From an uncultured Mycoplasmatota bacterium (GTDB lineage: Bacteria > Bacillota_I > Bacilli_A > RF39 > UBA660), in the NCBI GenBank assembly GCA_947302655.1, contig CAMYVW010000003.1, positions 12,280 through 76,279 on the forward strand: a stretch of DNA of 64,000 bases, in the 5' to 3' direction. The position numbers and the translations under genes are program-made. The notes beneath the pieces are model-generated. The model was given only the letters and a program-made list of their open reading frames with translations. It ran no database searches and had not been told where the DNA came from. This document shows positions 25,732-40,951 of this stretch, in pieces (position 1 is the stretch's first letter; each line of letters starts with the position of its first letter).

Positions 25732-27273
25732 TTATGCAGACTTCTTAAGTCTTTCTAGGAACTCGATACATTCTTTCATATTTCCATTACCGAATTCTTT
25801 ATTTAAATATTTAATAAATCCATCAATTTCATCGCGTATTAATATTAAGTTTAATTGTTCAAATTTTCTTAATACTTTTTTAGCTAAGAAGTAATCGATA
25901 CCTGCAACTTCAGTACCTCCACAAGCTACATATACTGGAGCAAATACTTTTAACTGTTTCATAATACGATTACCGAAAGCAATTCTAAAATGTTCAATAA
26001 CATAATTATCAAGTTTATTAATAATATCTATACCTTTATCAGAAATAGCATACTTTTCAGTAGCTTCTTTAAATAGATCTTCTAAATAACTTGAGTTAAT
26101 ATCCATAGCTTCTTGTTCACGGCAAGTAAATGGATCAATTTTTTCGTTAATATCAATAGGCATTGCTCTATCGTAAACCTTATCTGTAACCATGAATGTT
26201 GAGTCATCGTTATTAATTGTACCAATATACCATAAGTTACCAGGAAGTCTCAATTTACCATGTTCTAGTAATTTAGGATCATCTGGCCATGTAGTTGTAA
26301 CAAGTTCAATAATCCATTCTTTACGGTTTGGAACTTCTAGAACTGATAACATTTCTGCAAAATAATATTCAACACGAGCAATATTCATTTCATCTAGAAT
26401 AATTGTATGGATATCATCATCAAATCTAGATAAGTATAATTCTTCAAGAACATTACTTTCATTAAACTTCTTTGTAAACTCATTGAAATATCCTAAAAGC
26501 TCTGTTTTATCACGCCAAGATGGTTGAACAGATGCAATACATGAGTTATGTTTAACGAATTTTCCCCATGCATATGCTAAGGAAGTTTTACCTGTTCCAG
26601 AAATACCTTGTAGGATTATAAGTTTACTACAGGCAAGTCCACCAAAGAAAGCTCTAAGTAAGCTTTCATTGTAATATAAATGTAATTGAGATGCTGCAAA
26701 ACATCTAAAGTTATCAATTAATTCTTCAAGATTAAAATTACCATTGTAATTTTTAGGTTTAAAGTTTTTCATAGCTTCATCAATACGAATTAATTTAGGG
26801 AATCTTGCAGTACCTGCATTTGGATCAGCATCTGGATTAGCGTTTTCTTCACCTGGAAGTCCAGATGAGTCTTCTCCTCCTTCTCCTGGTTTAAGTCCTA
26901 ACTGTGAAACCTTCATAGCCATAAGTTCATCTTTTTCTTTCATCAACTTACGAACTTTTTTATTAAGGTTATCTATTTCATCTAACAATTCATCTTGATT
27001 TAACTTTTGTTTTCTTAATCTAAAATATTTTCTTACTTTAGTAAATATTAAAAATAATACTCCAAGAATTATTACGACTAAGAAAAGAACTGTTATAACA
27101 ACAAAAATCCATTCAACAGCACCAAAACTACTTTTATAATTATCTAGTACTTTTTTGTAGTCAAAATAATTAAAGATTTCTTTAATACCATTAAACATAC
27201 CTTTAAATATCATACCTACGCCGTTAAAAAAAACAGAAGTAAATTCGTAAAAAAATCTAAAAAATGTATTCAT
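25732..27273 (-). CDS. membrane-anchored McrB-family (AAA_5) AAA+ GTPase
   Basis: Walker A LQGISGTGKTSLAYAWGKF. The McrB-type Walker B and downstream region IILDEMNIARVEYYFAEMLSVLE…WYIGTINNDDSTFMVTDKVYDRAMPIDI resembles McrB FIIDEINRANLSKVFGEVMMLME…GLMNTADRSL…DYALRRRF. The N-terminus has a TM helix EWIFVVITVLFLVVIILGVLFLIF, a coiled coil and a Gly/Pro/acidic linker. Confidence 0.7.
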   Translation of the reverse strand: MNTFFRFFYEFTSVFFNGVGMIFKGMFNGIKEIFNYFDYKKVLDNYKSSFGAVEWIFVVITVLFLVVIILGVLFLIFTKVRKYFRLRKQKLNQDELLDEIDNLNKKVRKLMKEKDELMAMKVSQLGLKPGEGGEDSSGLPGEENANPDADPNAGTARFPKLIRIDEAMKNFKPKNYNGNFNLEELIDNFRCFAASQLHLYYNESLLRAFFGGLACSKLIILQGISGTGKTSLAYAWGKFVKHNSCIASVQPSWRDKTELLGYFNEFTKKFNESNVLEELYLSRFDDDIHTIILDEMNIARVEYYFAEMLSVLEVPNRKEWIIELVTTTWPDDPKLLEHGKLRLPGNLWYIGTINNDDSTFMVTDKVYDRAMPIDINEKIDPFTCREQEAMDINSSYLEDLFKEATEKYAISDKGIDIINKLDNYVIEHFRIAFGNRIMKQLKVFAPVYVACGGTEVAGIDYFLAKKVLRKFEQLNLILIRDEIDGFIKYLNKEFGNGNMKECIEFLERLKKSA

Positions 27274-27275
27274 AT

Positions 27276-29282
27276 TTATTTATACTCTCCTATTCTTTTT
27301 AAAATATTATCAATAATTATTTTATCATAAATTTGTTTTGGTATGTTTTTTGATAACTTGCTTAAATCCATTTTTTTATCCGTAAAATAATAATCTGACA
27401 TAAAGATATAAGCTAGTTCTTCACTTGTGTATTCCTTATATTCGTCAAAAATCAAAGCAAATAAATATCCTTTTTTTCTTAATCTCATTATATCATCATT
27501 ATTTTGCAAAATATTAGAAACTGTAGAAGTAATTATAATATGATTTTTTGCATATTCATTATCAATAATAGATGCTATTCTATCTAGTTTCTTATCTTTT
27601 CCGTATAATGGATTAGGAATATAAACAAAATATTTAGCGTTGCTATTACCATTTAAAATATCTTTAACTACTCTACATAAAATTAGATTAAATAAAACAG
27701 ATAGTTTATCTTCTGATACAATTCCATCACTATAAGTTTTATCAACAATATATTTACTATAAACCTTGCTAAACTTAATATTATAGTTTAAATAAACACC
27801 GAAGTAATTAGGTTCATCTTTAAATCTATTATATATTGCTATAAAAGAATTTGTTTCAAATTTCTTAATAATTTCATTAATAATTTCACTTGAATATCTA
27901 ATAACAGCTTTAATATTATTTAGTAACAAGTCATTATCTACATCAAAATACTTATGTAATTCTTTCTCAAAATCAATATTTTTCTTATCTTCTATATCAT
28001 ATATAAATAATAATGCATTAGAGTAAAGTTCTATTGCTTTAGTCTTTGTATCATCATTTTGATTCTTCTTTATTAAAGCTTTCTTATTATCGTTAAAAAT
28101 CATCTTAAAAGATTTTCTTTCTTCAGGTAGTGAATAATATTTTAAATAAACATATTGTTTAATAAGTTCGCTTCTAAAAGAAGATTTTTTAATATAAGAA
28201 TATTCATCATCTAATAAAAGATCAATTATTTCGTTATACATTATATTTTTGATAATAAATAATTTATCAACGATATTTTTAGCCTTTTTAGCATTAATTT
28301 TTTCTCTTAAGTAATCCTTAGTAATTACTTTTTCTTCTTTCTCTTCTTCTATTTCTTCTGCTTCCAAAACTATATCATCTTGTTTAATTTTAACATCTAC
28401 TTTTTGATCATCTTCAACTGGTTTAATAGATGTATCACTATTTGGTTCTTCAATATCATCAACTTTAATGATCCTTAATACTGCAGTTTTAGATAAATCT
28501 TCTTCTTTTATCTTATTATCTTCATTAAATTCAACTACATTACCTGACTCACCATCAACAGTAACTTTTCTAAATAGAATAGTTTTACTCATTTCATCTT
28601 CAGGTTCATCATCTTCATCGTCATCAGATGCAAATACATCAGAATAATCAGGTTTAAATTTATTTTCTTCACTTGATGTAGTATTAGTAACATTAGTTAC
28701 TTTTATAGTATCATTTCGATGTTTAAAACTTCTAATCTTATTTTTAATTATTCCAATATACTTATTTAATATCTTATTAGAAGATTTCTTTCCAGCATTT
28801 AAATAAAGGTTAACAAAATACAATGTAATAATTAAGAAAATAATAACTATAGGATTAAAAATAGTTTTTTTAAGGAAACCAAAAGAGTGAAGAACTTTTT
28901 TTACTTTACCAACAATTTGGCTTCTATCAATTGGTTTATCTTTAGCATTATTAGCATCACCTTTAGTTACAAAAGAATCTTGGTAGGCTTCAACTACACG
29001 GTGTGTAATAAAATTATTATCCTGTTTATATGTAATAATATCACCTATTTTGATATTATTATCACTTTTAACTAAAATCCAATCTCCAATTTCAACTGAT
29101 CCATGCATACTGCCAGTTTGAATTTCAAATAGTGAATAACCAAATAAACTAGAATGATCATTTTTTAAGATTTTAACTTGAATAAAAGAATAAATAGAAG
29201 CAAGCAAAAAAAGGGCAAATAATACTATTAAAGCATTTAAAGCATAATCAGTAATTTTACTAAAAACTTTTACTTTCTTCAT
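27276..29282 (-). CDS. SipW-type signal peptidase fused to a ~450-aa C-terminal (predicted cytoplasmic) domain of unknown function
   Basis: N-terminal TM, then QTGSMHGSVEIGDWILVKSDNNIKIGDIITYKQDNNFITHRVVE…TKGDANNAKDKPIDRSQIVGKVKKV, which carries the SipW catalytic Ser/His boxes. A second TM follows, then an acidic linker DDDEDDEPEDE, then a 450-aa domain. The protein is 668 aa. Confidence 0.65.
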   Translation of the reverse strand: MKKVKVFSKITDYALNALIVLFALFLLASIYSFIQVKILKNDHSSLFGYSLFEIQTGSMHGSVEIGDWILVKSDNNIKIGDIITYKQDNNFITHRVVEAYQDSFVTKGDANNAKDKPIDRSQIVGKVKKVLHSFGFLKKTIFNPIVIIFLIITLYFVNLYLNAGKKSSNKILNKYIGIIKNKIRSFKHRNDTIKVTNVTNTTSSEENKFKPDYSDVFASDDDEDDEPEDEMSKTILFRKVTVDGESGNVVEFNEDNKIKEEDLSKTAVLRIIKVDDIEEPNSDTSIKPVEDDQKVDVKIKQDDIVLEAEEIEEEKEEKVITKDYLREKINAKKAKNIVDKLFIIKNIMYNEIIDLLLDDEYSYIKKSSFRSELIKQYVYLKYYSLPEERKSFKMIFNDNKKALIKKNQNDDTKTKAIELYSNALLFIYDIEDKKNIDFEKELHKYFDVDNDLLLNNIKAVIRYSSEIINEIIKKFETNSFIAIYNRFKDEPNYFGVYLNYNIKFSKVYSKYIVDKTYSDGIVSEDKLSVLFNLILCRVVKDILNGNSNAKYFVYIPNPLYGKDKKLDRIASIIDNEYAKNHIIITSTVSNILQNNDDIMRLRKKGYLFALIFDEYKEYTSEELAYIFMSDYYFTDKKMDLSKLSKNIPKQIYDKIIIDNILKRIGEYK

Positions 29283-29351: not shown

Positions 29352-29894
29352 TTACGAGTTTTCTATTTCATCATCATTTTTTCCATATTTTATCTCAATT
29401 ATTAATGTGTATAATTGATAAATAAATAGGAAGAAGTTAGGAACTAATATTATAAACAAAAAGCCCCATTTAGATTCAATAACTGAAAGATATGTACCAA
29501 TATTAGAATAAGACTTAGTTCCAGTTCCCATTATAAACTCTTTTGAATATGTTTCGCCATTTTCAAATGATATTGAATCTTGATCTTCAAATACTTGACC
29601 TACTTTACCATATTGAACAGATGCTCCACCTTGACCATCTAAATGATAAGTAAATACCATATCTCCAGCTTTATAATCCTTAATTAGTTTATTTTCAACA
29701 AAAACCAAAGATCCTTTTTTATAATTTTCAGATGAAAATTCTTTTTTTACTATTAATAACGAAGTATCACCAAATTGTGTTATTCCATACTTATTATGAT
29801 TTAAAACAAGCACTGTCATTGTTATTGTAAATGCAAGAAAAATAACAATTAATGTTGTTGTAAATATCTTTTTAACTAACTTAAATCCTTTCAA
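29352..29894 (-). CDS. SipW-like paralogue with degenerate catalytic motifs (possible pseudo-peptidase)
   Basis: Same N-TM, beta-domain, C-TM architecture and KKGSLVFVENKLIKDYKAGDMVFTYHLDG box as SipW. It has ITQFGDTSLLIV where GSMEP should be, and no THR box. Confidence 0.4.
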   Translation of the reverse strand: MKGFKLVKKIFTTTLIVIFLAFTITMTVLVLNHNKYGITQFGDTSLLIVKKEFSSENYKKGSLVFVENKLIKDYKAGDMVFTYHLDGQGGASVQYGKVGQVFEDQDSISFENGETYSKEFIMGTGTKSYSNIGTYLSVIESKWGFLFIILVPNFFLFIYQLYTLIIEIKYGKNDDEIENS

Positions 29895-29951: not shown

Positions 29952-30839
29952 CTAATTACACCCACTAGACTCTCGTATTACAAAATCATTTAAAGATAAA
30001 TCACTATTATTACTTCGTTTGAAAAATTTAATTTTAGAACTAGAATCTGCATTAACAATAGTTTTAAATCCATTAACATAATCATTAGCATCATACTGAA
30101 GATTAGTAGTTAAATTATTAATATCTAATACTCTATTAGTACTATCAAAAGTAATTTGTAAGCACTTATTTTGTGAATAAGTATTATTCAATATTAATTC
30201 ACTAAAATTTGAATAAACCTTATTTATATTAGTTATTTCTCCACTACTTTTAATATTTCTTTGTAACTTAAAAACACCAGATAAACTCTTTGAATAAGGA
30301 CTTGTACTAGTTGCAGTTATTCTAACATCAATTTCTTTATCTTGATCATTTTGATTATTAAAAACAATATTAAAATAGTTGTTTTGCGATACTTTTTGTT
30401 TTACCCAATTATATCCATCGACTTCACATTCAGTCTTATTATAAGATGTAACATCAGTTTCATCTTTCTCATTTACACATCTAGCATTACTTGATAAAAC
30501 AAGATTTAAAGTACTATTATTACTATCGTTAATTGTACAACTAGCATTAATATTCTCAGTTAAAACTTCACACGTTACAGTATATCTAATATCAAAATCA
30601 GTTATTAAGTTTTCACTAGCATAATTTTTCAAAGTAAATGTTGTACTACCACCATCCCACAGAAGATTGGTATTATTTTTATTGGTTTTTAATTCGTTAC
30701 TTTCGAAATAAAATCCCTTAGATTTTAAGTAGTATCCTTTCATATAACTAGAAGTATATCTACCAAAAGAAATGATTGCTAAAGAAAATGATATAGATAT
30801 AAGTATAAACATAATTAATACTTTTTTCTTTTTATTCAT
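29952..30839 (-). CDS. secreted Cys-containing Asn/Ser-rich protein with SipW-cognate-like signal (minor fibre/accessory component)
   Basis: MNKKKKVLIMFILISISFSLAIISFGRYTSSY…; 295 aa with six Cys. Confidence 0.45.
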   Translation of the reverse strand: MNKKKKVLIMFILISISFSLAIISFGRYTSSYMKGYYLKSKGFYFESNELKTNKNNTNLLWDGGSTTFTLKNYASENLITDFDIRYTVTCEVLTENINASCTINDSNNSTLNLVLSSNARCVNEKDETDVTSYNKTECEVDGYNWVKQKVSQNNYFNIVFNNQNDQDKEIDVRITATSTSPYSKSLSGVFKLQRNIKSSGEITNINKVYSNFSELILNNTYSQNKCLQITFDSTNRVLDINNLTTNLQYDANDYVNGFKTIVNADSSSKIKFFKRSNNSDLSLNDFVIRESSGCN

Positions 30840-30847: not shown

Positions 30848-31375
30848 CTATATTTTTTGATAACTTTTGATTTCAACATTAATATAATCAATTAAGTTTT
30901 TATACTCTTCAGTGTTATAGTTTCCATCAAAAGTAATTCGAAGTTCAAATGTATTTAATTCATTTCTTGTATGAGATAGTTCAAACGAATTAGTTTTACA
31001 AACTAGTTCATTATTTTCATTTCTACTATAAGTCTCATCACAAGTTAGAACTAAAGTATTATCCTTGTATAAATTTATTACAAGTGGAGCATAATGTGGT
31101 GTTATAATTGACAATTCATATAAAATTGATACATCACTTCTTGTATTATTCTTCACGTTAGTAATAGAAAAATTATGACTCATACTCTCTCCAGGAGATA
31201 GCTCACCTACAGGTATTTCTAATCTGTCAGTTACCTCAGAGTTAAAGACAAAACCAGCAAGTTTTTGATCAACACTTGATGCAACTACACCTGAATTAAA
31301 ATAAGAGTATGTAATTCCAAGACTAAACGTTAAAATTAAGAGTGAAATAATAATTATTAATACTTTTATTCTCAT
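30848..31375 (-). CDS. compact TasA/CalY-like protein with SipW-cognate signal
   Basis: SLGITYSYFNSGVVASSVDQKLAGFVF… then …LSPGESMSHNFSITNVKNNTRSDVSILYELSI, which is the TasA-fold core. 175 aa. Confidence 0.5.
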   Translation of the reverse strand: MRIKVLIIIISLLILTFSLGITYSYFNSGVVASSVDQKLAGFVFNSEVTDRLEIPVGELSPGESMSHNFSITNVKNNTRSDVSILYELSIITPHYAPLVINLYKDNTLVLTCDETYSRNENNELVCKTNSFELSHTRNELNTFELRITFDGNYNTEEYKNLIDYINVEIKSYQKI

Positions 31376-31384: not shown

Positions 31385-34300
31385 CTACCTAATTATAAAG
31401 TACTTATTAATAGTATTAATGTACTCATCACCATTATATAAATCAAATGCTAATCTATAATATCCTTTTAACATATTAGTTGTATTAATAAATAAATCTA
31501 AATTATTAACAGTTGCAGGATTATTAGCATTATATAATGTAGCCCTTCTTGCAAGATAATAGACATTATTTACATATTGATCAAGTTGTGTTGAAGTATA
31601 ATCTTGAATATCAACAAGTGTATACTGCTGATTATATGCAGATAAAGTATTCTTTTTATAAAGTGAATATTTAATATTAGGATTATTTAATCCACTAACT
31701 ATTACACTATAATCAAGCTCTGCAGTAGATGGCTTATTATATATCATATCTTTATTATTAGTAACATCAAATACATATGTATAATTCTTTTCTTCTGTAG
31801 AATTAATTAAAGGAATTAAAACTCTACTATTACTATTTTGTGAAATAATAGTTTCACCATCATACGAAATATATGGAGTTATAGTAATGCTATAATTTCC
31901 ATCTAATAGATTATTTAAAGATCTATATGTAGAAATCTTAAGAATAAAGCTAGAAGTAGTATTAGTATTAAGATTTATTTTTATATTACCATTATTATCA
32001 GGAACATAAATATTATCAGAAACGCTAAATATAATACTCTTATAATAGTCTCTATTTATTACATTACCATTACTATCAACAATATTAATTAAAACTCCAA
32101 TAGTTTTATCATTAAAGAAGGTATCAGTAGCTTGTGAATTTAAAACATTGTTATAAAGTGTAACATTAGTTACAGAATCTGTATTATAGTTAATATTTTG
32201 ATTAAAGTTTGTTGTTAAAGAGTAACTAGTATTATAACTATCAGATGTTAAAACACTAAATGTGGTTTCATTGATATATGGTCTTACAATATTCATATTG
32301 TTATCAAGACCAACAATATTTAAGTAAATATTATGCATATCAGAACTTATAGTTGAAGAACTAAAATCAATGATTAAAGAAAATTCTTCGCTCTGAACAG
32401 ATCCACTCTGATATAAATTATTATTTCTTTTTCCAACAAGATTAAATAAACCAAAACTATAATAATATTTATTATTTAAGCTAATTGCATCATTTTGATT
32501 AACAGTATATGAATATGTATTATTATTAGTTTTATCAAATAACATAATACGTGTGCCGGTTGGCAGTAATGCATTAGAAATTAAATAGTGATCGAAACTT
32601 TGTTGATTTGTTGATGCATATGTTATATTCATCATTATTGATGATTTTTTTGTAATGATATTTCCTGATTCAAAACCAACAGGTTTTAAATCAGAAACAG
32701 CATATCCATCATAAATAATAAGTGGTGTTGATGCATAAGACACATTTCCAGCCAAATCAGTTGATCTAACATATAAAATATACTTTCCAGAAGAAGTTAT
32801 ATCAATTGGATTTACATAATCAGTCCACTGAACTGAACTTAAATCATTAATATCATTGTTTAAAAAATAATTTAAAGAAATACTATCTTGTGAATTATCA
32901 GTGCTAGATGCACTAATAGTTGCACCAGTATTAATGTAAACTTCATTATTATTAATTGAAGAATAAATGTTATTATTAAAATCTATACTAATTAAAGGAC
33001 CAGTTTTATCAATAATAATATTATCAGAATTAATATATGTAACTTTACCAGATAAATCAACAAACTTAACATAAATTATATAAGAGCCTTCATTTTGAAC
33101 TACTACAGGATCTGTATATGAAGTCCATGAAACATTATTTAAATCACTTGTTGATAACACTTGATCTTGATTACTTATATAATAATACTTTGTAGTTTGA
33201 AGAAGCTGACTATCATCTGCGATTGTAAAAGTTATATTAGAAGATATATACTTCTTATCAATAAATAGTGAGTATGTATCATAAGTATCAAGGTTTAAAT
33301 ATAATTTTGTATGATTATCACTGTTATCATCAAAATATAAAAGAGGATAATCACTTCCATTAAATACCCATTTATTTTGACTATTTGAACTATAATTATT
33401 TAAAGATACAAACTCATTGTAACTAGTTAGATATGTTTTATCTTTTAAATTATTATCAATTACCATATTTGATAAAACTAAATTATTATTTCTTGCATAA
33501 GTATAATAAATATTTTGTGAATTTATATTACTATTATAAAGATGTGAAATTATATCATTATCAGTTGTTAAAAAACTGTTTTCAAAAACTAAATTTGAAT
33601 TTATTAAATATCCAATAAAGCCATTACTTATAGTTCCAGCATTATAAGAATTACTAATTGAACTATTGCCCTTTAAAACTCCTATTAAATTTGAATCATT
33701 TGAATAACCATTTCCATAACTATAAGAACTATCGATATTAGTATCAATCGCATAACCTATTAATAAACCAGTTATATCTCCACCATAAACGCTTGCTCTA
33801 TTAATAATATTTGAAATTGATGAACCTTCAGAATATGCAGCAACAGCACCATTTATTGATAATGATATTTGGTCATAGTCTGCATAAAGTGTTGTTTCAT
33901 CATAAAGACTAGCGCTAGATTCATCAATTAAAAGTCCACTTATATAAATACTATCAAGTGTTCCATTTGTTAAATTTGTAGTTAAAATAGCTTTATTCTT
34001 AACAACAATATTATTTAAATATAAGGATGATACATCACCACTTATATTTTCAAATAATGGAGAGTTGCTATAATAACCATATATAGTCTTAAAATTACCA
34101 TCTAAATAACCTTCAAAATTCGACATTGAAGGGAACATATTAAGAGTTCCTACTTCTTCTTGAGTAAAATCAGAAGAGCTATAATACTTATTATCATTAA
34201 CAAAATATGCATTACCATTTAAATTATATTTTAACGTATCATTTTCATAATAAAAATAACCGTCATTAATTACAATATCATTTATAATTTTAAAATATTT

Positions 34301-34555
34301 ACCATCATATGTATCATTTTCCAAGTTACTTGCAAAATAAGCAAATTCTTCAGGTGAAGAAATAATATACGGATTATTTCTTGTTCCACTACCAGATCTA
34401 TATGATGAAGCAACATTACCTGACCATACTCTAGCATCTGATAATGATGTTCCCTTTTTAAATCTGCCAAATGCCGGTAATATACAAAAAGGAAGTGATA
34501 TTAAAGCAACCATAAAAATAGCATAAATTATTTTTCTATTTTTACTTATACTCAT
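31385..34555 (-). CDS. 1056-aa secreted Asn/Ser/Tyr-rich protein (putative fibre tip/adhesin) with SipW-cognate-like signal
   Basis: Signal …LISLPFCILPAFGRFKKGTS. The GTRNNPYIISSPEEFAYF segment is typical of beta-helix surface proteins. Composition is extremely N/S/Y/T-rich throughout. Confidence 0.5.
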   Translation of the reverse strand: MSISKNRKIIYAIFMVALISLPFCILPAFGRFKKGTSLSDARVWSGNVASSYRSGSGTRNNPYIISSPEEFAYFASNLENDTYDGKYFKIINDIVINDGYFYYENDTLKYNLNGNAYFVNDNKYYSSSDFTQEEVGTLNMFPSMSNFEGYLDGNFKTIYGYYSNSPLFENISGDVSSLYLNNIVVKNKAILTTNLTNGTLDSIYISGLLIDESSASLYDETTLYADYDQISLSINGAVAAYSEGSSISNIINRASVYGGDITGLLIGYAIDTNIDSSYSYGNGYSNDSNLIGVLKGNSSISNSYNAGTISNGFIGYLINSNLVFENSFLTTDNDIISHLYNSNINSQNIYYTYARNNNLVLSNMVIDNNLKDKTYLTSYNEFVSLNNYSSNSQNKWVFNGSDYPLLYFDDNSDNHTKLYLNLDTYDTYSLFIDKKYISSNITFTIADDSQLLQTTKYYYISNQDQVLSTSDLNNVSWTSYTDPVVVQNEGSYIIYVKFVDLSGKVTYINSDNIIIDKTGPLISIDFNNNIYSSINNNEVYINTGATISASSTDNSQDSISLNYFLNNDINDLSSVQWTDYVNPIDITSSGKYILYVRSTDLAGNVSYASTPLIIYDGYAVSDLKPVGFESGNIITKKSSIMMNITYASTNQQSFDHYLISNALLPTGTRIMLFDKTNNNTYSYTVNQNDAISLNNKYYYSFGLFNLVGKRNNNLYQSGSVQSEEFSLIIDFSSSTISSDMHNIYLNIVGLDNNMNIVRPYINETTFSVLTSDSYNTSYSLTTNFNQNINYNTDSVTNVTLYNNVLNSQATDTFFNDKTIGVLINIVDSNGNVINRDYYKSIIFSVSDNIYVPDNNGNIKINLNTNTTSSFILKISTYRSLNNLLDGNYSITITPYISYDGETIISQNSNSRVLIPLINSTEEKNYTYVFDVTNNKDMIYNKPSTAELDYSVIVSGLNNPNIKYSLYKKNTLSAYNQQYTLVDIQDYTSTQLDQYVNNVYYLARRATLYNANNPATVNNLDLFINTTNMLKGYYRLAFDLYNGDEYINTINKYFIIR

Positions 34556-34571: not shown

Positions 34572-35642
34572 CTAAAATTCATAACCTGCTAAATCTTTTT
34601 CAAGATCTAAACTTAAATTTAGTGGAGCTCCCTCAGAATGAACTTCTAAAGCATCTATATCTTGTCCTTCTATCCAAAGGTAAACTCTAACTTTAGTAAT
34701 TCCATTTGGTATTTGAAACAATGGTTCAGAAAATTCATCGTCTTTTCTTGTTTCCTGAAGAGCAAAGTGTTCTGTATCAAAAGAACCGCTAGAAGAAATA
34801 AGCCCACTTTTATGATCAAGTCTTCTTCCTTCTTTAATAACTGCATACGTAGGAACATATGTGTTATCAACAAGATCAATACCAAATTCTTTTACAGCAT
34901 CAATAGATTCTTGATTGTGCTTCAAACTATTTGGTTCATAAATAAGCGAAACGCATTCATTATTACACTGTAAATTTTGAATAGTATATACATCAGCTTT
35001 TAAATCCGTTTCTCCAATTTTTACAAATCCGAGTCTAATAGAGTTCATAATATCTTCCATTTTTTCCCTAGTTTCTTGATCTGCAGTTTCATCAAACTCA
35101 ATATAAGTTCCACTACTTAAATAAAGATTATCTTTATATGGAGATCCAGATACATTCTTTAAAAATATATCAAAAGCTATATAGTTACTATACTCACTTG
35201 GACTATCTTCTGAAATCAAATCAGTATTAACAAATCTTTTACCTCTTCTTGCTTTATCAGTATATTTTCCCATTGATCCTGAATAAACATCAAATTTATC
35301 ATTGTTTGGAGAAGAAATACCATTTGATGAAACTGACCAAAGACCATTAGTAGCCCATTGATTAGTATGATTAGGATAATTTTTCTTAACTTCATGTATA
35401 ACAGACTCTCTAGATATTTCAATAGAATCAGAAAAATTAACACCATCTAAAGAAATAAATAAACCTGTATCTGTTGATACTTTAACATTAAAGAATTTAA
35501 TTTTAACATTTAAGGATGCTGAAAACCATGCATAAGTTGCAAAAAGAAAAACTACACCAACAAAAAATGTAACAAGAAAGATATATTTAGTTTTCTTAGA
35601 AAACTTTGGAATATGAAGTTTTTCTTTTATGTTAGTTTTCAT
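34572..35642 (-). CDS. TasA-like fibre subunit paralogue (SipW-cognate signal)
   Basis: …FLFATYAWFSASLNVKIKFFNVKVSTDTGLFISLDG…, and a C-terminal motif KVRVYLWIEGQDIDALEV shared with the two major-subunit genes. The RBS GGAGGA precedes the ATG at 35642. Confidence 0.55.
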   Translation of the reverse strand: MKTNIKEKLHIPKFSKKTKYIFLVTFFVGVVFLFATYAWFSASLNVKIKFFNVKVSTDTGLFISLDGVNFSDSIEISRESVIHEVKKNYPNHTNQWATNGLWSVSSNGISSPNNDKFDVYSGSMGKYTDKARRGKRFVNTDLISEDSPSEYSNYIAFDIFLKNVSGSPYKDNLYLSSGTYIEFDETADQETREKMEDIMNSIRLGFVKIGETDLKADVYTIQNLQCNNECVSLIYEPNSLKHNQESIDAVKEFGIDLVDNTYVPTYAVIKEGRRLDHKSGLISSSGSFDTEHFALQETRKDDEFSEPLFQIPNGITKVRVYLWIEGQDIDALEVHSEGAPLNLSLDLEKDLAGYEF

Positions 35643-35654
35643 AATATCCTCCAT

Positions 35655-35734
35655 TAATAAATTAAGGAATAATCAGTAACCGACTATTCCTTAACTTTTA
35701 TTTGTAACAAAACATAAGCTTTGTTTATTAATTA
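35655..35734 (-). promoter_or_regulatory. inter-cistronic hairpin (partial terminator/attenuator) downstream of the major-subunit genes
   Basis: GGAATAATCAGTAACCGACTATTCC imperfect hairpin in an 80-nt gap. Confidence 0.3.
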
Positions 35735-37420
35735 TTATTCATTAGTAACAGTTACAGTTACAACTTCAGTAGCTACGTTTCCAGCTTCATCTGCTACTTC
35801 ATATAATACTCTGTATACACCAGGTACTGCATTATTTACAGTTCCTGTTATAGTAGCATGAATTCCAGATCCTTCTGGTCCATACCATTCATCTGCATCA
35901 TCTGCAGTGTCATGAGTATATGGAGTTAAGTTATCAGTAATAGCTGTAATTGTAGGTTGAGTGAATGTACCGTTCTTAGCTATAGTTTGATTTTGAGATC
36001 CGCTTAATGTAATAACAGGAGCAGTCTTATCTATAGTTTTTAACTTAGTAATAATTTGAGCTTCTGTTGGACTTACACCTTCACCAAGTTCTAATTCTGT
36101 AGCTAAAGCTTCAATTATTTCAGCTCTTGTTTGGTTAGGTCCTTCACCTTGATTTAGTACTGGTCCTTGATAGTTAATATCATCTTCAGTAAATCTTTCT
36201 TTAGTGAATCCGAAGTTAACAGCTATTTGTTTACCTATAGAAGCAAAGTCATAGTTATCAATGTCTTGTCCTTCAATATAGATATACACTCTAACTTTTG
36301 TAATACTATTTGGTGCTAAAGTAATGAATGTAGGTCTTTCAACACCAGTTTTTAATTTCATTGTATCAGTAAAGTATGGATATGCAAATAAGTATTTACC
36401 AGCATTTCCTTCAGCAGCACTAATAGCAATAGCCTCAGTATCAGCTATATCTCCAGTATAGCTATTAAATGCACTACCATCATAGATATCAACTGAATTC
36501 ATAGCAGTGATTTCTTTACCAATCGCATATGTTGGATATGTTTGACCATCAACTACTGTTCCACACGCACCTTCATAAGAAGCAGCTAAGCTTGTATCAG
36601 TTCCAGCAGCTTTTCTTGCTCTACAAGTAGTATTATACCAAGTTAGAGCATCTGGTACGTGGTTTGTATCATTTGGTTCCCAAATTTGAGCTGTACGGCA
36701 AATACCAGTTACAGTCGAATCAGTTGCACAAGTAATACCTTGAATTGTTGATGCATCTGTATTAGTTGCCTCTACACGACCAATTTGTGCAAATGCAACA
36801 CGAACAGAATTTTCAATACCAGTGTTTGCAACGCCTGTTGATCCAACTACAACCTTAGAATCATTTGTTAAATAAATTGCTTCTTCGTTAAGTGGATTAT
36901 TTGTCTGGTAATATTCAGCACCAGATGAGTTTTTAATAAATAAGTCGAATGCAACATAACCATCAGGTGTTGTAGAATCGTTATTAACTCTACTAGCCAT
37001 TAATCTATAACCACCTGCAGTAGTTGTTAAACTACCTTTTTCAAATAATGTTAAACGACTTGTTGTTGTATTAATAATACCAATTGATGACATAGGAATT
37101 AATCCACGTCCACCCCAAGTATTTGTATTAGTTGGGTATGGATTTCCTTGTGCAGTTAATGTATTATCTGCAGCAGTCTCTGCAGCAGGGTTTCTAAAGT
37201 TTGTACTGTTAATTGCTACTGTATCGCTCCAGTTTACACCATCAAGTGATAACTGTAAGTCTTCTGTTGCAGCAATACGAACTTCGAATGGAGAAACATT
37301 AACAGTTCTCATACCAATAAACCATGCATAAGTTGCTGTTCCTAGGACGATTGCCATAAAAGTAAATACTATAGCAAGTCGCAATATTCTTTTTTTCTTA
37401 CTAGAATTCTTCCTTTTCAT
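35735..37420 (-). CDS. TasA-like major fibre subunit with C-terminal Ig-like (DUF5011-type) domain
   Basis: …LGTATYAWFIGMRTVNVSPFEVRIAATEDLQLSLDG…VRVYIYIEGQDIDNYDFASIGKQIAVNFGFTKERFTE… followed by …NAVPGVYRVLYEVADEAGNVATEVVTVTVTNE. Its Thr/Ala/Gly-rich composition and GC-richer codon use resemble the ribosomal-protein genes in this window. Confidence 0.6.
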   Translation of the reverse strand: MKRKNSSKKKRILRLAIVFTFMAIVLGTATYAWFIGMRTVNVSPFEVRIAATEDLQLSLDGVNWSDTVAINSTNFRNPAAETAADNTLTAQGNPYPTNTNTWGGRGLIPMSSIGIINTTTSRLTLFEKGSLTTTAGGYRLMASRVNNDSTTPDGYVAFDLFIKNSSGAEYYQTNNPLNEEAIYLTNDSKVVVGSTGVANTGIENSVRVAFAQIGRVEATNTDASTIQGITCATDSTVTGICRTAQIWEPNDTNHVPDALTWYNTTCRARKAAGTDTSLAASYEGACGTVVDGQTYPTYAIGKEITAMNSVDIYDGSAFNSYTGDIADTEAIAISAAEGNAGKYLFAYPYFTDTMKLKTGVERPTFITLAPNSITKVRVYIYIEGQDIDNYDFASIGKQIAVNFGFTKERFTEDDINYQGPVLNQGEGPNQTRAEIIEALATELELGEGVSPTEAQIITKLKTIDKTAPVITLSGSQNQTIAKNGTFTQPTITAITDNLTPYTHDTADDADEWYGPEGSGIHATITGTVNNAVPGVYRVLYEVADEAGNVATEVVTVTVTNE

Positions 37421-37448
37421 ATATATTTCCTTTCCTTCTCAGTCTATA

Positions 37449-39056
37449 TTATTCTGTTACAGTAACAGTAGAAATTGCTTCAGCATAATTTCCTTGCCAG
37501 TCACTTACTAAGTACCTAACTACATATGTACCTGCAGTAGCAACTACTGGGTTAGTTACTTGAACCTTAGTAGTTAAATCAAATGTACACTTATTATTAG
37601 CCCATGTTCCTTGAGCAGTGTTACATTTAGCTTCAGTATCTTCAGCACCAACGTCTGATGCAGTTACACCAGCCATTGGGTTATAACTTGCAACTTGTGC
37701 AACTGTTAAGTTCTTAGTAGCTTCTACACCAGCTATAATAGGTTTAATCTCATCACCTGTTGGCATGTTAGGTCCATCTATACCTTGAGCTTCTTCTTCA
37801 GTAAATCTCTCTTTAGTAAATCCAAATGAAACATTTATTTGTTTTCCTATAGATGAGAAATCATAGTTATCAATATCTTGTCCTTCAATCCATACATAAA
37901 CTCTTATCTTAGTAATACTATTAGGAGCAAGTGTAATAAATGTTGGGCGATTAATACCAGTTAAATTTTTCTCGGTATCAGTAAAGTAATCGTAGGCATA
38001 TAGTGGTTGGCTATCACTATAATTTGTTCTTGTAGTAGCAGAATATCCATTATATTGAGTTCCATCATAAATATCAACTTTATCAGCTATATCAACAACA
38101 CGTCCTACAGCATAAGTATTTTTTGCAGTACCATTAGCAACTGCTGTACAAGCTCCATCTAATGTATAAGATGTTGCAAGTGTAATATCAGTTGGATCTG
38201 TTATTGGATCAACTGCAGCCTTTCTAGGTCTACAAGAAGTATTGTAATAACTTATAGCATTATTAACGTGAGCAATATCATTTGGTTCCCAAATTTGAGC
38301 TACACGGCAAATACCAGTTACAGGAGAGTTTTCTCCAGGAACACATTTAATTCCAGTTATTGTATTAACATCAGTTGTTTTTGCATTAACACGACCAATT
38401 TGTGCAAAAGCTACACGAACTGAATTTTCAAGTCCAGTATTAGCAACTCCAGTTGAACCAACACTAACTTGAGAATCTGTAGTTAAATAAATTGGTTCCT
38501 CATTCAAAATATTATCTTCTGTGTAGTATGCTTGACCTGAGAAGTTCTTAACAAATAAGTCAAATGCAATATATCCACCATTTTCAGTATTAAATCCATA
38601 AGCATTTACTGAATTTGCATACTGCTGATTAGTTTGATAATTGTGAATTCGGCTTGCAAGAAGTCTATAACCACCAGGTGTAGCAGTTAAACTACCCTTC
38701 TCATACATCTTCATTGTAGAAGATGCTGTGTCGATTTCACCAATTGAAGAAATTGGTTTTAGGCCAGGATTGACAGCTCCAGTACCAAGTCCTGCCCAGT
38801 TATTAACATTACCTGTATAAGATACTGAACTAAAGTTACCACTATCTATTGTAACAGTCGTATCCCAGGTATTTCCATCAAGAGATAAAAGCAAACTATC
38901 AGTACTTGCTATGTCAATTTCAAAGCTTTGAACATTAACAGCTCTCATACCGATAAACCATGCATAAGTTGATACTGCAAATACTATTAATAAAAGAAAT
39001 GAAATAACAACTAATCGCTTAACTCTTTTAGATTTTAGATTTTCATTTTTGTTCAT
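37449..39056 (-). CDS. TasA-like major fibre subunit, tandem paralogue of 35735-37420
   Basis: …AVSTYAWFIGMRAVNVQSFEIDIASTDSLLLSLDG…IRVYVWIEGQDIDNYDFSSIGKQINVSFGFTKERFTE…; it has the same architecture and codon bias. Confidence 0.6.
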   Translation of the reverse strand: MNKNENLKSKRVKRLVVISFLLLIVFAVSTYAWFIGMRAVNVQSFEIDIASTDSLLLSLDGNTWDTTVTIDSGNFSSVSYTGNVNNWAGLGTGAVNPGLKPISSIGEIDTASSTMKMYEKGSLTATPGGYRLLASRIHNYQTNQQYANSVNAYGFNTENGGYIAFDLFVKNFSGQAYYTEDNILNEEPIYLTTDSQVSVGSTGVANTGLENSVRVAFAQIGRVNAKTTDVNTITGIKCVPGENSPVTGICRVAQIWEPNDIAHVNNAISYYNTSCRPRKAAVDPITDPTDITLATSYTLDGACTAVANGTAKNTYAVGRVVDIADKVDIYDGTQYNGYSATTRTNYSDSQPLYAYDYFTDTEKNLTGINRPTFITLAPNSITKIRVYVWIEGQDIDNYDFSSIGKQINVSFGFTKERFTEEEAQGIDGPNMPTGDEIKPIIAGVEATKNLTVAQVASYNPMAGVTASDVGAEDTEAKCNTAQGTWANNKCTFDLTTKVQVTNPVVATAGTYVVRYLVSDWQGNYAEAISTVTVTE

Positions 39057-39187: not shown

Positions 39188-39231
39188 AAAAGACGAAAAA
39201 TTATTACTATTCGTAACTATTTTTCGTCTTT
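39188..39231 (-). terminator. intrinsic terminator after the 538-aa gene
   Basis: 12-bp perfect stem AAGACGAAAAAT / ATTTTTCGTCTT followed, on the minus strand, by a U-run. The stem overlaps the last codons KDEK*. Confidence 0.55.
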
Positions 39232-40824
39232 ACTATTTAACAGTTTGGAATTTTGTACAATAAACCATATTTTTTCAACAGATAGTGTACTTTTTTCTAT
39301 TTTATAAATCCTTTTAATGAACTCTATTTTATTAACTAGTACATCTAAGTTATCTTCATCTAAATCTTCAGAATTAATGTTAATATTTTCCATACGATAT
39401 CTATCTGATATTATTGAAGAAATACTAGCATCATCATTTATGCTAATTCCTTTAATTATTACATTATTTGGATTAGAAGCAAAATCATCAAATTGATCGC
39501 AAAGTTCTACAAATTGATTAGGGTCATCATGATCAAATATTTCTTTAAAAATTTCAATTTTAAAGAAAGTATAACAATAAAACAAATTAACAATATCACT
39601 TACATGTATGTTTCTATCAGATTGAAGCAATGAAATTTGTTTTTCAAACAATAACTTATCTCTTTTTAAATACATATCAAACAATTTGTTAGCTTGTTCT
39701 AATGAGGCATCTGTTGATTTTGATACAGCCTTATTTTTCTTGTTAAATAATGAACCAACATTTTTTACAAAATCTAATTTATTTGATCCTGTTAGCTTTG
39801 AAATAATTGCATTAATATCCTTTTCAACTTTTTTGATCTCATTATCAACATCACTAACAGTTCTCTTCTTAGAATAGTTTTCTTTAAAATATTCAAATAA
39901 AGGCATAAATTTTAAATAATACTTATACTCTATTGCATTCTGTTTCAATTTTTCTAAAACTGCAAGTAACTTGTTCATAGTCGCTTCATCACTATAATCG
40001 ATTTCATTAATTGTTAAAGTAGAAAGGGTAGTACTTCTAAATTTACTATCTTCAAAATAATTATTTATATCAATATCATTTTTAATTGCTTTTTCAACAA
40101 TATCAGCAATATCTTCTTCTAAAGAACTAGAGTAATCATTATAAAGTTTAGAATATTTATCTTTTAAATCATCATTTGATGATGATTTAGTATCAGCAAG
40201 AATCTTCTTCTTTTCATTTGCAATATATTCTTCAAAGTTCTTCTTATACTTATCAATCAAAATTATAAAATTCAGTTCGATGTGTTTTATAATATCATGA
40301 TTTTTCCAATATATTTCTTCAAACACTTTTGATAAGCCATCATAATTGTTCTTTGATTCAAAGTAAACTGTCATATATTTATTAACATATGAGGTTAAAT
40401 TAAAATCATCACTTTTTAAAACGACACCGGCCTTTTTGAATTTTTCAATTATGTTACTTATAAATATATTTATGTCTTCAAAAGTGTATTCAGAGTAAGA
40501 ATTTATATCATAAATAGCTTCATCAAGCTTAAGTTTTTCTTTAAATGAATTGCATGTATTAAATAAAAATAGTTTATCTTTAAAATCATCTAAAGATTTT
40601 TTAATCTTTTCTATATCATGTTTTTCTGATGAATATTTAAATGATGAACTTTTAGCGTTTATATATTTTGTAACTGCATCTTTGTAGTAATTATAAGACT
40701 TTAAAATTTCATCAATTTTTTGATTATATTTTTTTTGATTTGTTTTGTTATTTGTTGGAAGCGATTGAATCAAGGTTTTCTTTGATTCAATATCATTATT
40801 TATAAAATCCAAAAAATTATTCAT
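39217..40824 (-). CDS. hypothetical cytoplasmic Lys/Glu/Asp-rich protein (no TM, coiled-coil-like)
   Basis: I chose the start at MNNFLDF because GGAAGGAG lies 9 nt upstream. I recognise no domain in its ~535 aa. Confidence 0.45.
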   Translation of the reverse strand: MNNFLDFINNDIESKKTLIQSLPTNNKTNQKKYNQKIDEILKSYNYYKDAVTKYINAKSSSFKYSSEKHDIEKIKKSLDDFKDKLFLFNTCNSFKEKLKLDEAIYDINSYSEYTFEDINIFISNIIEKFKKAGVVLKSDDFNLTSYVNKYMTVYFESKNNYDGLSKVFEEIYWKNHDIIKHIELNFIILIDKYKKNFEEYIANEKKKILADTKSSSNDDLKDKYSKLYNDYSSSLEEDIADIVEKAIKNDIDINNYFEDSKFRSTTLSTLTINEIDYSDEATMNKLLAVLEKLKQNAIEYKYYLKFMPLFEYFKENYSKKRTVSDVDNEIKKVEKDINAIISKLTGSNKLDFVKNVGSLFNKKNKAVSKSTDASLEQANKLFDMYLKRDKLLFEKQISLLQSDRNIHVSDIVNLFYCYTFFKIEIFKEIFDHDDPNQFVELCDQFDDFASNPNNVIIKGISINDDASISSIISDRYRMENININSEDLDEDNLDVLVNKIEFIKRIYKIEKSTLSVEKIWFIVQNSKLLNSKDEK

Positions 40825-40951
40825 TATTAGCATCTCCTTCCTCTAATTTAGAGTCTTCTAGAAATGCGATGAATGAATTGATTGCATCTAATGTTTCAAT
40901 TAACTCTTTTAAAGTTAAATAAGACATATCAAAGTCTTTCTTAGCTTCCAC
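40817..40951 (-). CDS. small acidic protein (44 aa), translationally coupled to the 538-aa gene
   Basis: RBS AAGGGTGA followed by a GTG start (VEAKKDFDMSYLTLKELIETLDAINSFIAFLEDSKLEEGDANNE). Its stop overlaps the next start (ATGAATAA). Confidence 0.3.
   Translation of the reverse strand: MEAKKDFDMSYLTLKELIETLDAINSFIAFLEDSKLEEGDANNE

Follow-up and report, generated by a model that had tools for sequence, protein, structure and literature searches.

Fibres of the SipW/TasA type are a major model for the biofilm scaffolds of Gram-positive bacteria and archaea. In Bacillus subtilis, TasA is processed by SipW and polymerises by its N-terminal donor strand, the first strand coming from TapA (PMC9674648). 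This TapA-SipW-TasA system, together with CalY/TasA/CapP of B. cereus and SipW-BsaA of Clostridium perfringens, represents the fibre systems closest to the locus reported here, and the described systems compared in this study have few genes and small accessory proteins. A second relevant system is CoCoPALM, named in 2024. In its passages on CoCoPALM, PMC11090510 presents McrB-like GTPases with an FtsB-like region of transmembrane (TM) segment and coiled coil, which are linked to signal peptidases and proposed to act in pilus assembly, and takes an NxD rather than NxxD GTPase signature as the mark of the clade; these passages give the association of GTPase, McrC homologue and peptidase only, and defer the analysis. 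Our limited literature search on CoCoPALM found no later description.

Below we report the analysis of a locus in a 64,000-nt stretch of DNA (the window) from an uncultured Mycoplasmatota bacterium. On the whole, what appears to be the SipW-dependent surface system of these abundant uncultured gut Bacilli is expanded to an operon of 14-15 genes, with three SipW paralogues, 7-8 cargo proteins bearing leaders, and, anchored in the membrane, a McrB-like GTPase that is paired with a DUF2357 protein (Table 1). Among its additions are a 116-kDa, fast-evolving beta-helix protein (the giant), a pseudo-peptidase and a GTPase taken over from McrBC restriction systems. A perfect TTGACA-17-TATAAT sequence (41745-41717) precedes a244, and from there down to 22500 the search detects no terminator on the minus strand. 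Most likely, this is a conserved and uncharacterised surface-filament operon of uncultured gut Bacilli, in which the giant is an adhesin. An earlier sequence-only reading of this DNA had missed both the operon of 14-15 genes with its three SipW paralogues and the CoCoPALM-like GTPase pair.

Table 1. Features of the locus, in window positions; the arrow marks the putative cleavage site, and aa numbers in the first column refer to the giant.
Feature	Position	Strand	Description
m406	22766..23986	minus	Secreted, TYAWF leader; last gene of the cluster; synteny in 22 loci
l187	23999..24562	minus	Active SipW-type (archaeal/ER-type) signal peptidase I
k378	24574..25710	minus	McrC N-terminal domain (DUF2357) partner; PF09823, E 4.4e-13, 49.5 bits (cut-off 23.3)
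j513	25732..27273	minus	Membrane-anchored coiled-coil McrB-like GTPase (AAA+)
i668	27276..29282	minus	Active SipW-type signal peptidase (N-terminal ~160 aa) with ~500-aa extension
h180	29352..29894	minus	Dead SipW paralogue, closes the four-gene block; hhalign vs l187 100%
g295	29952..30839	minus	Second small secreted protein; N-terminal 89 aa related to f175 (hhalign 94%)
f175	30848..31375	minus	Small secreted jelly-roll protein, candidate filament subunit
Giant ORF	31385..34555	minus	ATG start, 1056 aa, intact
C-terminal module, aa 617-1056	31388..32707	minus	Three beta-sandwiches, ~617-772, 773-925, 926-1056
Ig-like domain 2, aa 521-616	32708..32995	minus	OmpL47-type; NCBIfam NF047446, hhalign
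Ig-like domain 1, aa 411-520	32996..33325	minus	AF2 beta-sandwich; hhalign vs domain 2 99.7%, E 4e-27
Beta-helix, aa 44-405	33341..34426	minus	Right-handed parallel, IgA1-protease-NTD ('GLUG') type
Linker, aa 31-43	34427..34465	minus	Conserved basic R-F/Y-K-N-R, then ~8 variable residues
Leader, aa 1-30	34466..34555	minus	Basic n-region, hydrophobic segment of ~18 aa, then P-A-F-G↓R-F
e360, d561, c535	34572..39056	minus	Three paralogous secreted proteins with TYAWF leader
a244, b538	39217..41701	minus	First genes of the operon; a244 membrane-anchored, b538 K/E-rich, without leader
z224	41825..42499	plus	Divergent small secreted protein, TYSRY leader; in 20 loci

The gene for the giant is genuine, and its product is a well-folded secreted surface protein that is not of low complexity. 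Its ORF has the length and place given by the sequence-only reading, now with the ATG start and, directly 5' of it, the strong ribosome-binding site AAGAAGGTGAT confirmed on the minus strand. The protein is also, as had been said, rich in Asn, Ser and Tyr (14.1, 12.5 and 9.3%), each at about twice the local background, taken as the mean of the 16 other window proteins (7.6, 6.6 and 4.8%). The further claim of about 1000 low-complexity residues with recurring motifs is not borne out: in 50-aa windows the entropy ranges from 3.3 to 3.8 bits, close to the background of 3.73, self-BLAST detects no internal repeats, TRF on the DNA gives nothing beyond trivial two-copy repeats of 8-18 nt, and NGNAYFVND occurs once while SNS[QN]NIYY does not occur at all. 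Internal repeat detection, which had been recommended as a check, brings out the Ig-like pair as the sole internal duplication, visible by profile comparison only (hhalign). The other recommended check, fold prediction, gives a confident AlphaFold2 (AF2) model that is folded throughout (pLDDT 86.5) and has a beta-helix as its N-terminal domain. On these grounds a low-complexity or repeat protein is rejected as a candidate.

The ~25% GC of the window and the N/S/Y/I-rich composition could still point to an artefact, be it a low-complexity AT-rich ORF, a pseudogene, a collapsed repeat or a prophage tail fibre, an explanation to which we attach scarcely any probability. The giant has 81 full-length homologues, with 28% as the lowest identity, and those of its orthologues that are 98, 75 and 60% identical, all from independent assemblies, have exactly 1056 aa; one same-length orthologue in another assembly is likewise followed by genes of 175, 295 and 180 aa. 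Together with a dN/dS of ~0.18 against the 98% copy, based on only 24 substitutions, these equal-length orthologues speak, at the level of assemblies, against the pseudogene or collapsed repeat of the earlier worry, and the absence of repeats at both DNA and protein level and the pLDDT of the model likewise stand against an artefact. A phage tail fibre or tailspike is rejected as well: none of eight locus proteins, the giant included, has a PHROG match, the giant lies within a conserved cellular operon, and tblastn against 50,697 phage records returns a single match, which covers 8% of the query and falls in an Ig-like domain. The giant is a folded, acidic surface protein that is most likely exported, with a predicted mature mass of ~116 kDa and pI of 4.4.

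The domains of the giant follow each other from a beta-helix through two Ig-like domains to a C-terminal module (Table 1). The earlier proposal of a secreted giant with a beta-helical N-terminus is supported. The beta-helix has an N-terminal cap (GTxxNPYIIS, with a helix at 68-77; GTRNNPYIISSPEEFAYF is aa 57-74) and an Asn ladder; Pfam GLUG (PF07581) does not match the giant sequence and is carried by a distant homologue, P0080. In the second Ig-like domain, NF047446 matches aa 571-610 with E 4.6e-11 and 43 bits (cut-off 40). The C-terminal module, of 440 aa and without a sorting signal, is modelled with pLDDT of 80-93. A phmmer search against 1.84 billion representatives gives 189 matches to it, all C-terminal in proteins of ~1050-1240 aa or in shorter sequences that look like fragments; as far as these sequence matches go, the module is confined to the giant family and always C-terminal. 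Giant variants of 2704 and 2833 aa keep the module, with differing middle regions. Conservation is flat across the domains (0.48-0.53), so that no hypervariable receptor-binding tip stands out.

Judged from its sequence, the giant is probably not an enzyme. Many glycan lyases and hydrolases are among its generic beta-helix neighbours, which counts against an adhesin, and the beta-helix might be a polysaccharide lyase, glycosidase or depolymerase that remodels the cell's own matrix or degrades host or dietary glycans; we consider this very unlikely. The closest structural relatives are non-catalytic beta-helices, whereas the identity to pectin-lyase-fold glycan lyases, hydrolases and depolymerases is 6-12%. 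In aa 44-405 no conserved cluster of Lys, Arg, His or acidic residues is found among 56 homologues, where the conserved polar residues mainly form the Asn ladder; a lyase, hydrolase or depolymerase is rejected since conserved catalytic acid-base or Ca2+ residues are not found in these 56 sequences. If the giant were an enzyme, its Ig-like and sandwich domains would be carbohydrate-binding or spacer modules. An M26 IgA1 metalloprotease is also rejected, because HExxH is absent from the giant, which has only four His residues, and because Pfam and NCBIfam give no match to a protease or any other enzyme family; with the M26 proteases it has only the beta-helix NTD in common.

The leader is the sole hydrophobic segment of the giant in a KD scan and is modelled by AF2 as a helix at 5-35, with LPAFGRFKKGTS covering aa 26-37. 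In the giant family its consensus is I-P-T-L-A↓R-F/Y-K-N-R, conserved in 56 homologues, and P-T-L-A-R-F fits the locus-wide pattern T-(Y/L)-(A/S)-x-(F/Y). Each of the eight secreted proteins of the locus carries a motif T-(L/Y)-(A/S)↓(R/K/W)-(F/Y), the parallel leaders of the other proteins being TYAWF, TLAWF, TYSxF, TYAKY and TYSRY. We predict SipW-type cleavage of the giant after G30. The earlier description of the leader as SipW-cognate-like is partly confirmed: the leader resembles the neighbouring leaders, and none of the NCBIfam SipW-cognate models matches it; for all eight N-termini of the locus, the NCBIfam signal-peptide models give no match even at E <= 10, in a search where the HMMER filters drop most weak matches.

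Right after the putative cleavage site stand three basic residues (R-F-K-K; family R-Y-K-N-R), which is unusual for Sec substrates, so the leader could stay as a membrane anchor. With an uncleaved leader the giant would be a type-II membrane-tethered protein, either a stand-alone adhesin or an assembly scaffold or platform, and not a filament component. The single N-terminal TM helix, the conserved basic cluster directly behind it, the lack of an NCBIfam signal-peptide match at this N-terminus and the lack of detectable homology between giant domains and the putative subunits are all in its favour, yet we think it unlikely on balance: the -3/-1 small-residue motif is conserved and recurs in every other secreted protein that the operon encodes, the locus has three SipW paralogues of its own (two active, one dead), and a 13-aa linker would press the 116-kDa head to the membrane, beneath a cell wall that is implied by an amidase/LysM gene and a SleB-like hydrolase gene in the window. 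The linker columns are variable in the family alignment, and the segments following the leaders are disordered in the monomer models, at residues 33-39 of the giant (pLDDT <50) and 21-37 of f175. A TapA-like N-terminal donor strand in the giant is judged weak, because conservation behind the cleavage motif is limited to R-F/Y-K-N-R, the ~8 residues that follow being variable and not alternately hydrophobic. Scanning the giant for an LPXTG-like motif, a C-terminal hydrophobic segment or a second TM segment found none, and the first two absences speak against a sortase-anchored (LPXTG) adhesin or pilus tip.

The tie of the giant to a SipW-type locus, as proposed from the sequence at first reading, is strengthened by comparison across genomes. 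The block of giant, f175, g295 and h180 occurs in 44 of 46 genomes and stays intact even when the other genes of the cluster are rearranged. The two small leader proteins that had been noted directly after the giant are f175 and g295, separated by gaps of 9 and 8 nt. Of these, f175 is weakly TasA/camelysin-like, with homology to the TasA/camelysin family (Pfam PF12389, Peptidase_M73) below the curated thresholds, and a PDB profile search with its family gives only chance-level matches and none to TasA; g295, present in 44 of 46 loci, has the leader ISFGRY (family consensus TYAKY). The block-closing h180 is present in 40 of 46 loci, and all 15 members sampled have other residues in the columns of the catalytic Ser and His. 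The operon contains dedicated SipW-like signal peptidases with catalytic Ser and His, kept in 15/15 members for l187 and 14/15 for i668, which score 83 and 72.9 bits (the latter at its N-terminus) with TIGR02228 (cut-off 51.85). Both stay below the equivalog cut-off for B. subtilis SipW (69 and 50 bits vs 190) and are therefore SipW-type peptidases rather than SipW orthologues; the long extension of i668 has no family match. When each domain of the giant is compared by profiles with all other families of the operon, no relationship exceeds 50% probability except Ig1/Ig2, and the comparison brings out no pilin-like or TasA-like acceptor domain in the giant.

Besides this block, i668 lies immediately upstream and l187 immediately downstream of j513/k378, an order conserved in 24-28 loci. 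The GTPase j513 matches E. coli McrB (6hz4) over aa 196-381 (phmmer E 0.001), and its sequence reads as a TM segment at about aa 54-77 followed by a heptad-rich coiled-coil segment at about aa 85-120. It has at least 8000 homologues; a search through it for distant CoCoPALM loci was saturated by the same lineage, the best 120 matches all being at least 66% identical. Its motif region G-T-I-N-N-D-D-S aligns to M-N-T-A-D-R-S of McrB and is readable as NxD or NxxD. Going by sequence, the trio of GTPase, DUF2357 protein and signal peptidase fits CoCoPALM as the passages in PMC11090510 outline it. Upstream of the giant, e360, d561 and c535 have a GC content of 0.35 against ~0.25 in their surroundings, and the two large proteins among them end in an Ig-like domain (PF16403 in d561, E 8.5e-7; hhalign of c535 vs e360, 100%); these three may be the major structural subunits. 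Each locus has 3-5 paralogous TYAWF proteins, which show compositional signs of high expression. The synteny of a244 and b538 extends to 30 and 37 loci respectively, and the divergent z224 resembles g295 at the N-terminus only (hhalign 66%).

Across loci, the median identity is 30% for the giant, 65% for j513 and 61% for SipW. By this sequence measure no protein of the operon diverges faster than the giant, which is the behaviour expected of an exposed, ligand-facing protein. An alternative is that the giant forms the bulk of an S-layer-like coat or biofilm matrix without specific ligand binding. Its acidic nature and mostly beta-sandwich domains, the S-layer protein EA1 among its generic multi-Ig Foldseek matches and the flat conservation along the chain would agree with that, but a bulk component is hard to reconcile with one copy per locus, against the 3-5 TYAWF paralogues, with the fastest divergence in the operon, or with the lack of SLH, LysM or other wall-binding modules in the giant, and we regard it as quite unlikely. 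The best reading, which we would back and doubt in equal measure, is a SipW-processed adhesin presented on, or capping, a filament. A binding role had been suggested before; an adhesin is the most economical account of the non-catalytic relatives, the missing catalytic residues and the fast divergence.

For such an adhesin we propose the following course. The giant would be exported by Sec through its single N-terminal hydrophobic leader, which one of the active SipW-type peptidases of the operon would cut after the small-x-small motif (A-F-G↓R-F; family T-L-A↓R-F), freeing a protein with a non-enzymatic beta-helix head, two Ig-like spacers and a three-sandwich C-terminal module. Its retention at the surface would come from incorporation into the filament or matrix that the operon makes from the jelly-roll f175 and g295, the abundant proteins with a TYAWF leader, or both, rather than from a covalent or membrane anchor. 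The C-terminal module would dock, and is the candidate for this since it is family-only, always C-terminal and kept in the 2704- and 2833-aa variants; the outward-pointing beta-helix would bind a ligand of host, dietary or microbial origin. In addition, h180 could serve as a chaperone that binds leaders or as a platform for assembly, and assembly may be powered or regulated by the McrB-like GTPase and the DUF2357 protein.

More tentatively, and with clearly less confidence, the giant could be an exchangeable adhesive payload, with the McrB-derived GTPase and its McrC-N partner driving or gating the SipW-processed subunits, h180 chaperoning giant, f175 and g295, and the C-terminal module docking; lineages could then swap the middle of the giant, from 1056 to ~2800 aa, while keeping both ends. 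If so, this would be a previously undescribed class of Gram-positive surface-filament machine with a GTPase pair recruited from a restriction system. Should the giant be the adhesin of the surface structure, it offers a concrete candidate for the attachment of these uncultured gut-associated bacteria to host, food particles or other microbes. It would then also supply cargo for CoCoPALM, which the passages in PMC11090510 name from cytoplasmic components only, and make the proposed link of CoCoPALM to pilus assembly directly testable.

Compared with known systems, the locus is like TapA-SipW-TasA in that a gene for an archaeal/ER-type signal peptidase adjoins genes for small secreted beta-sandwich proteins, in leaders with a T-aromatic-A-x-F-like motif, and in an accessory non-subunit protein within the operon, as which TapA nucleates or anchors the fibre by the first strand (PMC9674648). 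Unlike TapA, the accessory protein here has 1056 aa (to ~2800 in the family), with a beta-helix head and five beta-sandwich domains, and shows no detected similarity to any described accessory protein. The classical operon has three genes, whereas here three SipW paralogues (one dead) and 7-8 leader cargos stand together with the McrB-like GTPase and DUF2357 protein. With CoCoPALM, as far as the passages in PMC11090510 describe it, the locus shares the GTPase fused to an N-terminal TM and coiled coil (j513), the DUF2357 (McrC-N) partner k378 and the adjacent signal-peptidase genes l187 and i668; secreted cargo, such as the giant, goes unmentioned in those passages. The compact right-handed beta-helix and its N-terminal cap G-(S/T)-G-T-x-x-x-P-Y-x-I are the same as in PDB 3n6z (BACOVA_03286, 'putative IgA1 protease') and the M26 NTD (7jgj, 7uvk), a domain that is non-catalytic in IgA1 protease; the M26 proteases differ by their protease domain with HExxH, their downstream domains and their genomic context. 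PfbA, a beta-helical adhesin of Streptococcus pneumoniae deposited, by its description line, as a cell-wall surface-anchor family protein, is 10-11% identical to the giant, which differs from it in lacking LPXTG. FimH of chaperone-usher pili is a two-domain tip adhesin that joins an outward binder to a fibre-docking module. Although FimH has no homology to the giant and its assembly machinery is entirely different, the two may share, by functional analogy, the logic of an outward binding domain carried on a conserved docking module.

The gene for the 1056-aa secreted protein, hereafter the giant, exists with the position and length that the sequence-only reading had given, on the minus strand. 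The ORF begins with ATG closely preceded by a strong ribosome-binding site (AAGAAGGTGAT), and gaps of only 8-16 nt separate it from the flanking genes. Of the two sequence strings once quoted from the protein, one stands at aa 26-37 and the other at aa 57-74. The giant does not fit the picture of some 1000 low-complexity residues that contain recurring motifs: NGNAYFVND is found a single time and SNS(Q/N)NIYY not at all, the entropy of 50-aa windows (3.3-3.8 bits) is close to the background value of 3.73, and self-BLAST of the giant returns the identity match only. The window is very AT-rich (GC ~25%), and Asn, Ser and Tyr are about twice as frequent in the giant (14.1, 12.5 and 9.3%) as in 16 other proteins of the window (7.6, 6.6 and 4.8%). 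In the giant's DNA, Tandem Repeats Finder reports nothing beyond trivial repeats of 8-18 nt in two copies, and a collapsed repeat is therefore no concern. In all, 81 homologues are found among 5.8 billion proteins, down to ~27% identity and none with an informative annotation; about 75 of the 81 align over most of their length (1037-1242 aa), and the orthologues at 98, 75 and 60% identity have exactly 1056 aa each. An independent assembly, Logan SRR14574034, carries the giant gene and, behind it as in the window, the genes of 175, 295 and 180 aa, and comparison with this copy gives a dN/dS of ~0.18 over 663 codons with only 24 substitutions. Raw reads aside, the objection that the gene is a pseudogene is without support, and it is hardly conceivable that the giant is an artefact or a phage tail fibre.

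The AlphaFold2 model of the giant, built with 56 homologues, is confident, with a mean pLDDT of 86.5; its pTM of 0.52 is what a beads-on-a-string arrangement of domains would give. The beta-helix N-terminal cap proposed earlier is correct, since the family profile matches 3n6z (E 1.4e-5) and is aligned exactly at the GTxxNPYIIS cap and the G-rich rungs. This beta-helix serves in the pneumococcal IgA1 protease as a gating domain without catalytic function (PMC7695701). The fold neighbours of the giant's own beta-helix include glycan-degrading enzymes, and the giant might be such an enzyme as well; however, the catalytic residues are absent, and we consider this very unlikely. There is no HExxH motif in the giant, which has only four His residues. 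Across the 56 homologues, an Asn ladder accounts for most of the conserved polar residues of the beta-helix, and neither a basic nor an acidic cluster is conserved; we therefore read the beta-helix as a binding or structural head, not an enzyme. The two Ig-like domains are mutual duplicates (hhalign 99.7%), the second matching the OmpL47-type domain of NCBIfam. When 1.84 billion representatives are scanned in full with HMMER, aa 617-1056 match 189 proteins, in every case at the C-terminus of proteins of ~1050-1240 aa or in shorter, apparently fragmentary sequences, showing that this C-terminal module is family-specific.

The giant is located within a minus-strand gene array from ~41.7 kb to 22.8 kb, summarised in the table. 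A perfect sigma-70 consensus lies immediately upstream of the first gene, a244, with overall promoter-like counts equal to the shuffled expectation, and no minus-strand terminator is predicted between this promoter and 22500. The consensus promoter together with the lack of a predicted internal terminator suggests that the array is a single operon of ~19 kb. Both catalytic residues, Ser and His, are lost in 15 of 15 members sampled of the h180 family, and h180, which closes the block giant-f175-g295, may be a pseudo-peptidase serving as a chaperone or platform. The ~500-aa extension of i668 is without a match to any known family and contains the acidic stretch DDDEDDEPEDE. The paralogues c535 and d561 are Thr/Ala/Gly-rich, with a GC of 0.35 against ~0.25 around them, and their type is present in 3-5 copies in other genomes; this pair resembles the main, abundant structural subunit of the operon's product. 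The small divergent gene z224 is kept beside the cluster in 20 loci.

Features of the window and of the giant, with the array genes in order of transcription
Feature	Position	Strand	Description	Leader motif
Promoter	41745-41717	-	TTGACA-17-TATAAT	
a244		-	membrane-anchored	
b538		-	K/E-rich	no leader
c535, d561	35735-39056	-	paralogues, with e360; both end in an Ig-like domain	TYAWF
e360		-	smaller paralogue of c535 and d561	TYAWF
Giant	31385-34555	-	1056-aa secreted protein	
Giant, helix	aa 5-35		single helix; sole hydrophobic segment	
Giant, linker	aa 33-39		disordered in the AlphaFold2 model	
Giant, beta-helix	aa 44-405		right-handed, parallel	
Giant, Ig-like domains	aa 411-520 and aa 521-616		two domains	
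Giant, C-terminal module	aa 617-1056		three further beta-sandwich domains	
f175	30848-31375	-	small jelly-roll protein	TYSxF
g295	29952-30839	-	small jelly-roll protein	TYAKY (family consensus); ISFGRY (window copy)
h180	29352-29894	-	SipW-fold paralogue (hhalign 100%)	
i668	27276-29282	-	active SipW-type peptidase domain in about the first 160 aa; above the TIGR02228 cut-off, Ser and His kept	
j513	within 23999-27273	-	TM segment, coiled coil and McrB-like GTPase domain	
k378	within 23999-27273	-	DUF2357 (McrC N-terminal domain) protein	
l187	within 23999-27273	-	archaeal/ER-type signal peptidase; above the TIGR02228 cut-off, catalytic Ser and His kept	
m406		-	secreted protein	TLAWF (family consensus); TYAWF (window copy)
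z224	41825-42499	+	small secreted protein, divergent from the array; same leader class	TYSRY
tRNA-Trp	22163-22236	-	overlaps the SleB-like ORF at its listed 5' end	
SleB-like ORF	22162-22734	+	cell-wall hydrolase, as listed	
Adjoining genes	42525-46651		Amidase_3 gene with two LysM domains; Abi_2 (abortive-infection-like) protein; zinc-dependent phospholipase C homologue	

Elsewhere in the window, the Hydrolase_2 match of the SleB-like ORF begins at aa 74, and the true start of this gene is probably further downstream than listed. The wall-active enzymes adjoining the cluster suggest that the host has peptidoglycan, despite the Mollicutes/Tenericutes label in some records.

All 56 giant homologues carry a leader with a Lys-rich n-region, a hydrophobic stretch of ~18 residues and then I-P-T-L-A-R-(F/Y)-K-N-R, for which the window giant has the variant L-P-A-F-G-R-F-K-K, and the remaining secreted proteins of the locus all have a related motif at this position. 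Leaders of the TasA class have small residues at -3 and -1, and an aromatic one two positions later. For the giant we infer cleavage after G30. The NCBIfam signal-peptide models match none of the eight N-termini of the locus, which is a weak negative owing to the HMMER filters. A basic cluster follows the hydrophobic segment and could mean that the leader is instead retained as an anchor, so that the giant would be an uncleaved, membrane-tethered surface protein or assembly scaffold; we regard this as unlikely. A TapA-like N-terminal donor strand is, we think, less likely than docking through the C-terminal module, only R-F/Y-K-N-R being conserved after the cleavage motif and the next residues being variable.

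Of 46 species-level genomes whose giant is full-length, 44 have the block giant-f175-g295, both exceptions being truncated contigs, and 40 have h180. The whole 14-gene order is seen in most long contigs, and in rearranged clusters (L011, L012, L032, L033 and L038) the block giant-f175-g295-h180 remains intact. The result speaks clearly for linkage of the giant to this type of locus and against the refuting case posed by the sequence-only reading, in which the homologues would be ordinary cell-wall proteins without that linkage. None of the hosts has been cultured, and most are MAGs from guts or anaerobic digesters. Their labels are Bacilli, Mollicutes, Tenericutes or Candidatus Coprovivens, with some others such as Muribaculaceae and Clostridium sp. 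Over 28 loci, the giant diverges faster than any other protein of the operon, with a median identity of 30%, compared with 65% for the GTPase j513 (at least 8000 database homologues), 62% for a244, 61% for SipW and 51% for h180; a component that is exposed and faces the environment typically diverges in this way. The giant's slot is taken by one ORF, of 2704 or 2833 aa, in a related locus subtype (L059, 9977-18091; L079, 2807-11308). These variants keep the leader, the first ~100 and the last ~400 residues but differ in the middle, where no Pfam match is found, showing that the ends of the giant are system-specific and the middle exchangeable. In Clostridia MAGs (L052-L078), the beta-helix N-terminal module (aa ~40-200) is repeated in tandem, about every 1 kb, in huge ORFs, and neither SipW nor McrBC-linked CoCoPALM neighbours are detected at these loci.

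No LPXTG motif, C-terminal membrane segment or wall-binding module is found in the giant, which has no anchor of its own once the leader is removed. Given this, the fast divergence, the ends and middle of the long variants and the precedent of TasA/TapA (PMC9674648), the most economical model, to which we give roughly even credence, is that the giant would be exported via Sec, have its leader cut by a SipW-type peptidase, dock by way of its conserved C-terminal module onto a putative filament or matrix built by the operon, and bind a ligand with its non-enzymatic beta-helix facing outward. Against this model, conservation is flat along the chain with no obvious hypervariable tip, and the hhalign comparison reveals no homology of any giant domain to the putative subunits. 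That the giant is a bulk coat or matrix component seems quite unlikely to us.

Domains of the kinds seen in the giant are known, as is the idea that a SipW operon can encode an accessory protein; by itself the giant is a fairly ordinary-looking adhesin candidate, while the surrounding system is unusual and uncharacterised. The new elements are a family-level definition of the giant, the C-terminal module found only in this family, the coupling of the giant to a dead signal peptidase (40/46) and two small jelly-roll proteins (44/46), and its assignment to the cargo of a CoCoPALM-type operon.

The locus would be TasA-type only loosely. The small protein f175 is below the Pfam Peptidase_M73 threshold, its match being limited to the first 75 residues; weak matches occur in 18 of 43 family members (best E 1e-5), and a PDB search with the family profile yields no TasA match. 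The model of f175 (pLDDT 78) shows a jelly-roll behind the leader and a disordered segment at aa 21-37, an architecture compatible with a donor-strand subunit; f175 is at most a candidate member of the TasA family. The 2024 McrBC census in eLife describes a large clade whose GTPase, of McrB type, is joined to a TM and coiled-coil region resembling FtsB, names it CoCoPALM and, in the parts available to us, defers its analysis and notes only the signal peptidase association, in passing (PMC11090510). To the same extent, the census describes no secreted cargo (PMC11090510), and our literature search finds no later paper using the word. Side by side in the array, j513, k378 and l187 fit the CoCoPALM description (PMC11090510); in one CoCoPALM-defining detail, the GTPase motif, j513 reads I-N-N-D-D-S, which may be taken as NxD or as NxxD. 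CoCoPALM is a better name for this system than TasA-type locus.
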